Shown: positions 4,122 to 6,923 of the stretch, piece by piece
How positions within the stretch are numbered: position 1 is the first letter of the stretch
Layout: every line of letters begins with the position of its first letter
DNA from: an uncultured Candidatus Saccharibacteria bacterium
GTDB lineage: Bacteria; Patescibacteriota; Saccharimonadia; QS-5-54-17
Length of the DNA stretch: 41,599 bases
Direction: 5' to 3'
Assembly: GCA_964489295.1 (NCBI GenBank)
Contig: CAZAXT010000004.1
Location: 1-41,599 of the forward strand
The notes under the pieces: generated by a model
Told to the model about the DNA's origin: nothing
The model's input: the letters and a program-made list of their open reading frames with translations, nothing else
The model's database searches: none
Translations under genes and position numbers: made by a program

Positions 4122-6923
4122 TTATTCCGTAGTGGCACCGTGTTCGTGGGCTAATACATCCTGTATGTGCTTCATACGTTCCTCGATGTGCGCTTCGGTC
4201 AGTGTCGCTTCGTGGGCTTGCAATTCAAAATGAATGGTCACGGCTTTCCGTTCATCTTTGTAGTATTCGTCGCGGAAGCTCGCGATAGCGTTTTCGACGG
4301 TTTCCAGGCTGCACCGTATGTCCTGCCATCGGGTATGCGGTGGGACCAGTACGGTGAGGTCGCGATAACTACTCTGGTATTTGGGTAATGGACGAAATCG
4401 TGCCGACTGCCACAGCCGCAATATCGCTGTCACGTCCAACTCCGCGTACATGACCGTCTCCCGTGACTTCAGGGAATCCAGAATGTCCGGGTGCATTTCT
4501 CCGAACCATCCGAGCGATTCTTCCCCGTTCCGGAGCGTAGCTTGGCGGGCTGGATGTAGAAACGGATTCTCCTGCTCTCCTTTGATGTCGGCTTGGATCT
4601 GAGCATGAGCCAGCAATTGATCTATATGATGCTTCAGGCGTAATACCGTTTCGGCTTTGGCGGCAATACCAAGCTTAAGATGTTCCGTCGGCAATTCTTG
4701 CTCAGCTTCAGGAACGAAGACCCGGGCGATCTCGAAGACGCCGAACTCCTCCGCGTACGCCGTGTTATTCGTTACGGTGCGAACGAGCAACGGGAGCAAC
4801 GTCGTACGGAGATACGCCTGCTCCTGGGAGCGCGGATTGGCTAATTTGAGATGCTTTTTATCCAGATTGAATGTTGTAATATCGTCTTCACTTATGAAAG
4901 GGTACGTCGTGACTTCGAATAACCCGAGTCCGTACAACAACCACCGGATTTCATTCAGGCGATACCAATATTCGTCCGGTGTTACATTATGGGGGTGCCA
5001 CGTCGGCAGTGTGGATGGAATTTCATCCAGCCCGATTAATTTGACCAGTTCTTCGACCACGTCTTCCGTCATGGTCACATCCGGCCGCCACCACGGCACG
5101 GTGACCGTCACCATGTCACCCGGATCATCAAGGTAGCGTCGAGCTCCGAGATAACTATCATCCTCAGTGAATTCCGACAGATCGGTTTCGATAACCCCTT
5201 GTTCGTCACGTTCTACCCATTCGTTATCTTTCCGGGTGTATTGGGCGACAGTCACAACTTTCCCGTCTCCGATGTAGATGCCGTTATGGCCGACCCGCTT
5301 TTCTTCTTCCAGTTCGTGCTTGGTATGACTGCCATCCGACTCACGGGTATAGTAATGATCGGTACTGGAGCGCTCGATTTTACCCTCGTAAAACACCACA
5401 TCACCCGCTTGCAATGCTTCCACCTCCACGGGTGTACCGTGTTCGAACTGCCCCAACGCCGTATGCCCGATATGCACGCCGACCAATGAGTATATATAGT
5501 CCACCAAATATGAGCAGTCGAACGCATCGGTGCCGTCAGTTTTATACGAAGCACCCCACTTGTACGGCTTTCCCAGATGCTCCCGGGTTTCGGCCACAAT
5601 GTCGAACGGGCGGGCTTCGAACTCTAATGTACGCAGTTGATCAGCGATCACCTCCCGACTCAAGTCATCGACACCGCTGAGCACGGAAGTCCGGGACGTG
5701 GAAATACCGATGTGCTGGATCCATGGCCACGCATTTCGCTCAGTATTGTATGCAACGACTTCAGCCCGTGCGTACTCCTGGAAAAGCCGGATGGCGTATC
5801 GCAGCGCATGCCGGACCGCCTGCATGGGGATCCCGCGTTCGAACCGGGCACTGGCCTCAGTTCTCAGACCGTGGCGCTTGGCTGACGTGCGGACCAGCGC
5901 ACTGTCAAAAGTGGCCGCCTCCAGAGCAATGGTTTCAGTTTGAGAGGTTATCTCGCTCTCCTGACCGCCGATAACTCCCGCCAGTGCCAGCGGTTTATCG
6001 TCATCGGCAATCACCAGGTCGCTACTGTTCAAATTTCGTTCCACGCCATCCAGTGTTGTCAGTGCTTCATCGGAGCGGGCGAACCGGATGTGTACCTTGT
6101 CCTTGATGGCTGCGTCATCAAAAGCATGGAGCGGTTGACCGGTGACAAGCATAGCGTAATTGGTGATATCCACCACAGTACTCATCGGCTTGATGCCATG
6201 GAACCGCAAGCGACGCTGCATCCACACCGGTGACTCACTGTCTATCTCTTCTCCCAGTTTCAATCGCACGAGGCCGTAGCATGAAACCGATTCCGGAACA
6301 TGATTTTCGAACAAGTCCGCTACTCGCTCTCCTTGTGAATCCGGTTTTTGTTCGAGGTCAAAAATATGGGTTGCCTCAGTGTGGGCAGCCACTTCACGAG
6401 CTATGCCTATATAACCTTGGACATCCCATCGATTTGTTGGTGTATCTACATCAATTACGGTGTAACGGTCGTCATATATAGCATGAAGCGGAGTGCCGGG
6501 TTCGACTTCCGGCCCCAAGTCCAGAATGCCTTCATGGGACTCGCCGAGCCCGAGTTCCCGCTCGCTGCACAGCATACCCTGGGACGTTTGGCCGCGGATT
6601 TCCGTTTCCTGGATTTCGGTCCCATCAGGCAATAACGCGCCGACACGCGCTAAAACGACTCGCTGCCCCTCGTACAGGTTGGGCGCACCGCAGACAATTT
6701 CGTATTGTTCGTCATCCACTTCGACCGTTGCCAGCCGAAGCTTATCGGCATCGGGGTGCGCTGCGACTTTTTTGACCGTCGCGGCTATGATGGCGTCATC
6801 GAACTCAGGCGGGCGGATGGTATCTTCTACCTCCAGCCCGGCTTTTTCCAGCGCCGTTTCTATCTGGGCGACGCTCAACTGCTCGGATAAAAACTCGTTC
6901 AACCACTCGACGACTACTTTCAT
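4122..6923 (-). CDS. pheT: Phenylalanine--tRNA ligase beta subunit carrying a ~160-aa inserted NlpC/P60-like domain
   Basis: 933-aa ORF with the expected PheT domain order: tRNA-binding domain ([17 protein letters not shown]), B3/4 ([20 protein letters not shown]), B5 ([27 protein letters not shown]), core and a C-terminal FDX-ACB domain. It lies directly downstream of pheS. Confidence 0.95.
   Translation of the reverse strand: [933 protein letters not shown]

Follow-up and report, generated by a model that had tools for sequence, protein, structure and literature searches.

Phenylalanyl-tRNA synthetase (PheRS) is a universal, essential, and well-studied enzyme, and the bacteria of the Candidate Phyla Radiation (CPR) have the smallest free-standing bacterial genomes, from which most dispensable sequence has been shed. 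Hydrolytic domains inserted in aminoacyl-tRNA synthetases are typically editing domains (e.g., CP1 of LeuRS, IleRS, and ValRS, INS of ProRS, and B3/4 of PheRS). To our knowledge, none of the known synthetase editing domains is a papain-fold thiol hydrolase. The subject here is a domain with that fold, of the NlpC/P60 family, which is found inside the PheRS beta subunit (PheT) of an uncultured Candidatus Saccharibacteria bacterium. Its gene lies in the first 41,599 nucleotides of contig CAZAXT010000004.1 (assembly GCA_964489295.1), a stretch referred to below as the window.

Several NlpC/P60 enzymes are known in enough detail to allow a residue-by-residue comparison. YkfC and dipeptidyl-peptidase VI (DPP VI), found in the cytoplasm of Bacillus subtilis and B. 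sphaericus, are NlpC/P60 gamma-D-Glu-L-diamino-acid endopeptidases that act on free murein peptides and require a free N-terminal L-Ala (PMC2954226). In YkfC, the catalytic residues are Cys238, His291, and His303, and bound L-Ala-gamma-D-Glu touches Tyr226, Trp228, Asp237, Ser239, Arg255, Asp256, and Ser257 (PMC2954226). In CdCwlT33800 of Clostridioides difficile, the substrate residues are Tyr229, Tyr231, Asp241, Ser243, and Arg259/Thr260, and the B4-B5 and B6-B7 loops form the walls of the groove (PMC12542765). Counted from the catalytic cysteine, the arginine at Cys+17 makes a salt bridge to an aspartate and takes part in forming the groove, and the serine at Cys+19 binds the alpha-carboxylate of D-Glu (PMC2954226, PMC12542765). 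The host domain in PheT is also known. B5 has been assigned to the helix-turn-helix, "DNA binding-like" domains (PMC3275996), which packs against helices of B3/4 that also touch the alpha subunit (PMC12449066).

The pheT open reading frame (ORF) of the window encodes a genuine bacterial PheRS beta subunit of 933 aa and is linked to pheS. It scores 611.7 bits against the NCBIfam equivalog TIGR00472 (pheT_bact; cut-off 402.65), with the match in two stretches and the insert between them. The Pfam domains follow the canonical order, tRNA_bind (aa 47-144), B3_4 (224-385), NLPC_P60 (451-523), B5 (601-631), CLM (635-831), and FDX-ACB (847-931); for B5 the match is confined to profile positions 36-66 of 67, its second half. 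When the protein is aligned to PheT of Staphylococcus haemolyticus (2rhs_B), residues 3-436 correspond to 3-443 and residues 602-922 to 448-790. From these two blocks it follows that about 165 residues (aa ~437-601) take the place of a B5 hairpin turn of about four residues. In the AlphaFold2 (AF2) model of full-length PheT (predicted local distance difference test, pLDDT, 93.4; predicted template-modeling score, pTM, 0.73), the B5 strands 436-439 and 604-609 stand on either side of the insert, the pLDDT of which is 87-97. The acidic motif of B5 (Asp615, Asp621, Glu624, and Glu625) is invariant in 120 homologues; by the annotation of E. coli PheT, these residues would bind Mg2+ jointly with the alpha subunit.

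Nested in the B5 beta-hairpin, the insert is an NlpC/P60 (MEROPS C40) cysteine-hydrolase domain, complete and non-permuted. PF00877 (NLPC_P60) matches aa 451-523 with an E-value of 7.5e-12 and 45.6 bits in the whole protein, and with 51.6 bits in the isolated segment, both above the gathering cut-off of 23. The alignment covers only profile positions 1-67 of 105, because a 29-aa hairpin interrupts the match. The RipC and p60 families of NCBIfam also match the insert in part, and a phmmer search of the PDB with the insert finds 8v3w_H (2e-12) and 7cfl_A (1.4e-9). For aa 431-613, AF2 with 119 homologues as input gives a model with a mean pLDDT of 93.9 and a pTM of 0.89. In this model helix 470-479 begins with Cys470 and strand 546-552 with His546, which is the non-permuted papain-like order. 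When the model is compared to the PDB by Foldseek, there are 60 matches at E<=1e-3, and the 50 listed are all NlpC/P60 chains with probability 1.00. The best are the domains of two C. difficile autolysins, Acd24020 (7cfl; E 6e-9, template-modeling score TMt 0.81) and CdCwlT33800 (9ubf; TMt 0.83, root mean square deviation 2.6), followed by a diffocin hub hydrolase, MepS, LytE, CwlO, SagA, and Rip proteins. An earlier note on this DNA, made by reading the letters and translations without database searches, had proposed an NlpC/P60-like papain-fold domain of about 160 residues inside B5 and had suggested the PF00877 hidden Markov model (HMM) search as a check. HMM, sequence-to-PDB, and structure-to-PDB searches all bear this out, the alignment to 2rhs_B gives nearly the same size, the signature motifs that it quoted are all in the translation, and its coordinates for the insert, Cys470, and His546 are exact (Table 1).

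Other identities were considered for the insert. A permuted fold of the LRAT or YaeF/YiiX kind is rejected: the cysteine precedes the histidine, and the LRAT profile reaches 14.6-18 bits (E 0.0037-0.041), below its cut-off of 24.3. For the 183-aa segment taken alone, Peptidase_C92 gives 28.4 bits, nominally above its cut-off of 27, but this match is broken into two incomplete pieces that overlap with PF00877, which scores higher, and it is not reported for the whole protein. An intein-like element is likewise rejected on the Pfam and Foldseek matches and on the conservation of the insert among homologues.

The insert is an inherited feature of CPR PheT, present in Saccharimonadia and at the same site in Paceibacteria/Parcubacteria. 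The 120 best homologues of the full PheT, drawn from NCBI, JGI, ENA, and Logan, all carry PF00877. They are 782-957 aa long and 37-72% identical to the query, and those with names are Candidatus Saccharimonadales or Saccharimonadia; they are called the Saccharimonadia type here. When 1.84 billion representative proteins were searched with a profile of the insert, PheTs of this type ranked first, and many further PheTs of 770-845 aa had the match at about residues 340-490. Ten of these distant, shorter PheTs were checked, and all ten have B3_4, NLPC_P60, the second half of B5, and CLM, and usually FDX-ACB, while several have no tRNA_bind. A profile search with the shorter PheTs found at least 120 more of the same architecture among the matches listed. 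Their names are Paceibacterota, Campbellbacteria, Yonathbacteria, Terrybacteria, Pacebacteria, Parcubacteria, and "Patescibacteria group"; one is labeled KSB1, which may be a binning error. Residue counts for this second, Paceibacteria type are based on 125 sequences (there are at least 125 such PheTs). A homologue search with the insert only returned free-standing NlpC/P60 proteins at about 30% identity, and it was the full-length query that brought up the PheT relatives.

The site of insertion is the same in both types, after the strand ..LGFxY/..LEFEA and before ..VTVPxxRxD. The linkers at the junctions are also kept in the Saccharimonadia type, with F440 in 116/120 and R596 in 120/120 sequences, together with the residues that follow them. 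Many Paceibacteria PheTs (e.g., L002 729..3119, alignment A4) have no tRNA_bind (B2) domain at all and retain the insert. Long PheTs with B2 and a canonical-type insert exist as well (P0205 and P0330), so that the insertion is independent of the loss of B2. Several PheTs of the Paceibacteria type have extra insertions in the C-terminal half of B5 and in the catalytic-like module.

An assembly chimera was one of the outcomes that the earlier note had named in advance as fatal to its proposal, and a survey of related PheTs was among the checks that it proposed. The survey finds the insert to be widespread in Patescibacteria/CPR and not confined to this genome. The same architecture occurs in hundreds of independent assemblies (NCBI, JGI, ENA, and Logan), down to 37% identity. 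A 739-kb contig of a Saccharimonadales metagenome-assembled genome has the gene order of the window (RmuC, a class Ib synthetase, a 118-aa protein, pheS, and pheT), and the operon order is the same in loci L009 and L010. GC content is smooth across both insert junctions and the reading frame is unbroken. Given conservation across the clade and the synteny on the 739-kb contig, a chimera or other artefact is ruled out for practical purposes.

Whether the two types go back to one capture of the domain was examined by a tree, by mean identities, and by profile scores. A neighbor-joining tree of the domain alone shows no PheT-insert clade (2-3 of 200 bootstraps); this short domain is saturated, and the free-standing sequences had been picked because they resemble the query class. 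Mean identity of the domain is 0.33 between the Saccharimonadia and Paceibacteria types and 0.35 between either of them and the free-standing domains. In the ranking by the insert profile, single-domain matches above ~78 bits come exclusively from PheTs and fragments of PheTs. This ranking, the shared host site, and the enlarged B4-B5 loop of both classes favor a single early insertion. The top full-sequence matches to the profile, P0138 (1183 aa), P0154, P0161, and P0162, owe their rank to tandem NlpC/P60 copies (9 in P0138 and 3-6 in the others) and are unrelated to PheT. The closest free-standing relative of the insert is P0001 (147 aa; L008 547..990), a small NlpC/P60 protein that has no signal peptide and contains the PheT-like motif GKPYKYGA..DAP..FDCS. 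It adjoins a DUF4258/DUF2283 pair on a 1.6-kb contig.

The catalytic cysteine is kept in 118/120 sequences of the Saccharimonadia type and in all 125 of the Paceibacteria type, and the counts for the catalytic histidine are the same. The two PheTs of the Saccharimonadia type that have no cysteine, P0059 (896 aa) and P0064 (901 aa), are the same two that have no histidine. In them Cys is replaced by Ser and His by Val or Ala, and the second hairpin of the domain is missing, but the full-length NlpC/P60 domain is retained; they look like a natural pseudoenzyme lineage. That the two residues are retained or lost jointly points to catalysis. The third position of the triad varies. Among the 120 sequences of the Saccharimonadia type it is H in 42, M in 26, T in 15, E in 13, Q in 12, and D, N, or others in the rest; in the Paceibacteria type it is His in 115/125. 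In CdCwlT33800, Cys242 and His296 are essential and the H308A mutant keeps activity (PMC12542765), which makes a Cys-His dyad plausible in the window's PheT despite Thr558. Both points of the original assignment stand, Cys470 and His546 as the catalytic pair and a triad that may be reduced to these two residues; Thr558 is in third place here, and across the class the position is taken by H, M, T, E, D, Q, or N. Mean pairwise identity is 0.51 in the insert and 0.43 over the whole protein; among the other domains it is 0.55 in B3/4, 0.36 in the catalytic-like module, and 0.27 in B8. By this measure (0.51 vs. 0.55) the insert is under constraint comparable to that on the editing domain.

The pocket residues were mapped by motif register and alignment to 8v3w_H, with roles taken from the studies of YkfC and CdCwlT33800 (PMC2954226, PMC12542765). 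As shown in Table 1, PheT of the window has the tyrosine and the Asp-Cys-Ser of the D,L-endopeptidases (Tyr226, Asp237, and Ser239 in YkfC; Tyr229, Asp241, and Ser243 in CdCwlT33800). The Arg at Cys+17 and the Ser (or Thr) at Cys+19 are found in the Paceibacteria type but not in the window, and the Asp at Cys+18, which in YkfC/DPP VI is paired with a Tyr of the SH3b domain, is Thr488 here; no SH3b domain is found in this PheT by Pfam. At Cys+2 the canonical glycine (DCSG) is replaced by tyrosine throughout the Saccharimonadia type. Among 55 free-standing domain instances this position is Gly in 45, Ser in 9, Leu in 1, and Tyr in none. The Paceibacteria pocket would thus be close to the classical gamma-D-Glu peptide type, and the Saccharimonadia pocket would have been re-tuned.

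The groove is elaborated as well. The spacing from the GD motif to the catalytic histidine is 37 residues in the window, with medians of 20.5 in the Saccharimonadia type, 29 in the Paceibacteria type, and 13 in free-standing domains. The additional residues form a beta-hairpin in the loop that makes the groove wall of CdCwlT33800. A second hairpin is present in most sequences of the Saccharimonadia type but missing from the Paceibacteria type. The resulting pocket would be more enclosed and suited to a small soluble substrate.

Table 1. Features of the pheST region and of the domain inserted in PheT. Coordinates are those of the window; S-type and P-type denote the Saccharimonadia-type (n=120) and Paceibacteria-type (n=125) PheTs.
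Feature	Residues (aa)	Coordinates	Strand	Conservation	Basis
pheT, PheRS beta subunit, insert-bearing	933 aa	4122..6923	minus		ORF, TIGR00472, Pfam domain set, AF2
pheS, alpha subunit, directly upstream of pheT	338 aa	7057..8073	minus		Pfam tRNA-synt_2d (E 2.1e-94) and Phe_tRNA-synt_N
B3/4 editing domain; His266 (QPLHAFD), Glu335, and Thr254/Asn255 kept	224-385	5769..6254	minus		Pfam B3_4 (E 2e-59), 2rhs_B alignment, codons checked
B5 first part (..LEFEARPF): strand 403-408, helices 409-416 and 423-431, strand 436-439	400-440	5604..5726	minus		AF2, aligns to 2rhs_B up to 443, translation checked
NlpC/P60 (C40) papain-fold insert	441-603	5115..5603	minus		PF00877, NCBIfam, PDB searches, AF2, Foldseek
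B5 second part: strand 604-609 (VTVTVPWW), then R-x-D..D..EE	601-634	5022..5123	minus		Pfam B5 36-66/67, aligns to 2rhs_B from 448
Oxyanion/S1 Tyr	454			Tyr in S-type 120/120; Tyr in P-type 125/125	
Position of YkfC Trp228 / CdCwlT33800 Tyr231	Trp456			P-type hydrophobic or aromatic	
Asp before Cys	469			S-type 120/120; P-type 125/125	
Catalytic Cys (FDCSY), N-terminus of helix 470-479	470	5514..5516	minus		codon checked, homologue counts, AF2
Ser after Cys	471			S-type 109/120; P-type 124/125	
Cys+2, canonical Gly (DCSG), Tyr in window (DCSY)	472	5508..5510	minus	S-type Tyr 120/120; P-type Ser 120/125	
His-Thr-Ala at Cys+17 to Cys+19, site of the canonical P-R-(T/S)-S substrate-binding motif	487-489	5457..5465	minus		alignment to 8v3w_H
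Cys+17, canonical Arg	His487			S-type His 99/120; P-type Arg 124/125	
Cys+18	Thr488			S-type Thr 98/120; P-type Met/Ile/Val	
Cys+19, canonical Ser	Ala489			S-type Ala 108/120; P-type Ser/Thr 93/125	
Extra beta-hairpin (29 aa; strands 523-527 and 533-537), in the loop that precedes the His strand (in CdCwlT33800, groove wall B4-B5)	515-543	5295..5381	minus		AF2
Catalytic His (VGHNGIYIG), on strand 546-552	546	5286..5288	minus		codon checked, homologue counts
Thr at His+12, where the canonical triad has its third residue, His	558	5250..5252	minus		homologue alignment
Second hairpin extension (14 aa), B6-B7 loop region	562-575	5199..5240	minus		AF2 strands 555-565 and 568-581

We tentatively favor, with a rough probability of 0.4, the reading that the insert is an active cytoplasmic Cys-His amidase for small gamma-glutamyl or stem-peptide-like substrates, tethered to PheRS. 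In the proposed mechanism His546 would activate Cys470, which would attack the amide carbonyl while Tyr454 stabilizes the oxyanion. The substrate would probably be a small soluble peptide akin to the L-Ala-gamma-D-Glu-X stem peptide, or another gamma-glutamyl peptide or isopeptide, and not the polymeric wall. A small rather than polymeric substrate is proposed because the two PheT-specific hairpins raise both walls of the groove. The role may be the turnover or salvage of wall-type peptides in an amino-acid-auxotrophic epibiont, with PheRS serving as scaffold and possibly as regulated partner of the amidase domain. What favors this reading is that the residues for L-Ala-gamma-D-Glu, as defined by crystallography and mutagenesis, are nearly all kept in the Paceibacteria type and in part here (Y454, W456, D469, S471, and T488).

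Several observations weigh against this reading. A salvage role leaves unexplained why PheRS should be the host and why the linkage to PheT is permanent. A free cytoplasmic gamma-D-Glu endopeptidase would threaten UDP-MurNAc-peptide precursors unless it were restricted, and the YkfC-type elements of such restriction (the Asp at Cys+18 and the SH3b Tyr) are missing from PheT of the window. The third residue of the triad is Thr558 here and Met in the closest relatives, not the polar His, Glu, Asn, or Gln expected. The changes of Arg to His and Ser to Ala and the invariant Tyr at Cys+2 make the classical substrate doubtful for this class; judged by these residues, the exact substrate probably differs from the classical gamma-D-Glu-diamino-acid bond. 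Finally, P0059 and P0064 have lost the dyad and kept the domain, so that a non-catalytic contribution also exists.

The main rival is a second hydrolytic site directed at tRNA. It would deacylate mischarged, D-aminoacylated, or N-blocked tRNAPhe, or hydrolyze the aminoacyl-adenylate, beyond the scope of B3/4. Hydrolases inserted in synthetases are, as a rule, editing domains; papain-fold thiol hydrolases cleave esters readily; and the domain is inside PheT in every homologue examined, in two classes. The contact of B5 with the B3/4 helices that also touch the alpha subunit (PMC12449066) would suit such a site. In addition, the Saccharimonadia pocket has drifted from the peptide-binding residues and has the invariant Tyr472 beside the nucleophile, which is compatible with a new substrate. 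However, the canonical editing site is intact. In 119 aligned sequences His266, Thr254, and Asn255 show no variation and Glu335 is conserved in at least 90%, so that Tyr-tRNAPhe editing would already be covered, the insert does not compensate for a lost site, and no replacement is needed. The near-full set of L-Ala-gamma-D-Glu residues in the Paceibacteria inserts would also be unexpected for a site that binds aminoacyl-adenosine. The net charge of the insert is not positive (median -4, -18 in the window), but charge is a weak proxy for RNA binding, since the anticodon-binding B8 is also slightly negative. We therefore consider the tRNA-directed site unlikely: with the B3/4 site intact and the gamma-D-Glu-binding residues retained, editing appears less likely than a peptide-amidase role. 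The wider proposal that the NlpC/P60 domain is a second catalytic center of PheRS acting on an aminoacyl ester, by thiol-based proofreading or transfer with Phe-AMP or (mis)acylated tRNAPhe as the target of Cys470, is similarly doubtful. Its transfer variant is very improbable taken alone; in it, Phe (from Phe-tRNAPhe or Phe-AMP) or a different acyl group would form a thioester with Cys470 and then be transferred to an acceptor, in the manner of LRAT. The NlpC/P60 superfamily does include thioester-forming acyltransferases (LRAT, itself a weak match below cut-off), and the domain is physically part of an enzyme whose product is an activated aminoacyl ester. Yet the topology is that of non-permuted P60 and not of permuted LRAT/YiiX, the best matches are all hydrolases, and the conserved gene neighborhood yields no candidate acceptor.

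The value of the domain might also be non-catalytic: it could brace B5/PheRS structurally, or it could tune PheRS by sensing ligands (e.g., wall-derived peptides), with catalysis vestigial. The full-length domain is kept in P0059 and P0064 without Cys and His, much of the class has lost the third residue of the triad, as has PheT of the window, and the conserved junction linkers (F440 and R596) suggest rigid packing. There is also a precedent for a non-catalytic NlpC/P60 protein, RipD (PDB 4jxb), which is among the structural matches. On the other hand, Cys and His are kept in 243/245 sequences of two deeply diverged classes, they are lost together where they are lost, which is the signature of a functional dyad, and the oxyanion Tyr and Asp-Cys-Ser are invariant or nearly so. 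Accordingly, this explanation seems quite improbable, though far less so than the transferase.

The neighborhood of pheT in the window has further features. The gene at 8073..8429 (minus strand) encodes a predicted multi-pass membrane protein of 118 aa, for which there is no Pfam match, and its stop codon overlaps the start of pheS (TAATG). An equivalent 118-aa gene overlaps pheS in a 52%-identical Saccharimonadales locus, so that this gene seems to belong to the pheST operon as a conserved component. The spacer between pheS and pheT (6924..7056) has 133 nt, is AT-rich, contains two copies of TTTAGGATTT, and has no Rfam match; the two genes are only 2 nt apart in L009. Directly downstream of pheT, at 3429..3914 (minus strand), is a gene for a very acidic low-complexity protein of 161 aa, the N-terminal two thirds of which are rich in Q, E, D, A, and P; it has no Pfam match, and a 136-aa unannotated gene occupies its position in L009 and L010. 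Acidic proteins are the rule in this window. The products of all large ORFs (e.g., 4122..6923, 9251..10396, 19459..21069, 22447..24105, and 39607..40692) have isoelectric points of 4.1-5.4 and contain up to 17-22% D+E. PheT itself, with a net charge of -71, is the most acidic among 120 homologues (family median -13). Judging from the composition of these proteins, this Saccharimonadia lineage may live in a saline habitat or in one that is unusual in some other way. The window also encodes a wall-associated enzyme, in an organism with a wall-peptidase fold in its PheRS: a 581-aa protein at 15134..16879 (minus strand) with two PG_binding_4 repeats and Beta-lactamase2. The sole Rfam matches in the window are RNase P RNA class A at 37301..37590, tmRNA at 28613..29019, and a tRNA at 18577..18650, all on the minus strand. 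The RNase P match (187 bits) covers only model positions 20-313 of 367.

A full-text literature search, which did not reach subscription-only papers, turned up no account of an NlpC/P60 domain within PheT or any other synthetase; the papers that it did bring up were on unrelated subjects (e.g., pheS counter-selection markers). The architecture is visible in precomputed Pfam matches and in NCBI product names such as "C40 family peptidase" and "beta subunit-related protein". It can be called seen but not studied, being annotated automatically in public databases with no functional account found. The initial view of it as undescribed thus holds for papers, while automatic pipelines do flag it. 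What is surprising is that two deeply separated CPR classes keep ~130-180 extra PheT residues that encode a hydrolase with its catalytic residues intact. If the substrate is a wall-type peptide, translation would be physically linked to the turnover or salvage of cell-wall peptides in obligate epibionts. If it is a tRNA, the insert would be a new class of proofreading domain. Were its substrate an aminoacyl ester, the insert would be the first case, in any synthetase, of an editing or transfer domain with a papain fold. It would be unique to CPR, and it would mean that a major part of bacterial diversity has a translation apparatus altered in a lineage-defining way. The insert is also a cheap sequence marker for CPR lineages and accounts for mis-annotations of PheT. 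Saccharibacteria, such as the strain used for transposon sequencing (Tn-seq), are now culturable and genetically tractable (PMC11665869), and therefore the function of the insert is directly testable.

When compared to known systems, PheT of the window resembles canonical PheT (S. haemolyticus 2rhs, T. thermophilus 1pys, and E. coli 3pco) in its domains and their order, its editing residues, the acidic motif of B5, and the adjacent pheS. It differs by the ~165 additional residues in the B5 hairpin, which in 2rhs has about 4. Like the synthetase editing domains (B3/4 of PheRS, the YbaK-like INS of ProRS, and CP1 of class I), the insert is a hydrolase fold within a synthetase polypeptide and is conserved across a large clade. 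Unlike them, it has the papain fold, and its host keeps its own intact editing domain. The insert shares with C. difficile Acd24020 and CdCwlT33800, B. subtilis LytE and CwlO, and E. coli MepS the fold and topology (TMt 0.72-0.83) and the Cys-helix facing the His-strand. It also shares with the secreted D,L-endopeptidases the oxyanion Tyr, Asp-Cys-Ser, and the GD..F strand. Those enzymes are secreted or wall-bound and cleave polymeric peptidoglycan, whereas the insert has no signal peptide and is nested in a cytoplasmic synthetase subunit. The insert departs from them further in its 29-aa B4-B5 hairpin, its 14-aa B6-B7 extension, and the replacement of Arg by His, Gly by Tyr, and the third His by Thr. 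YkfC and DPP VI are a precedent for cytoplasmic action on small soluble stem peptides with extra elements that close the groove, and Tyr and Asp-Cys-Ser are common to them and to the insert. Unlike the insert, they have Asp at Cys+18, the SH3b domain, and different elaborations of the groove.

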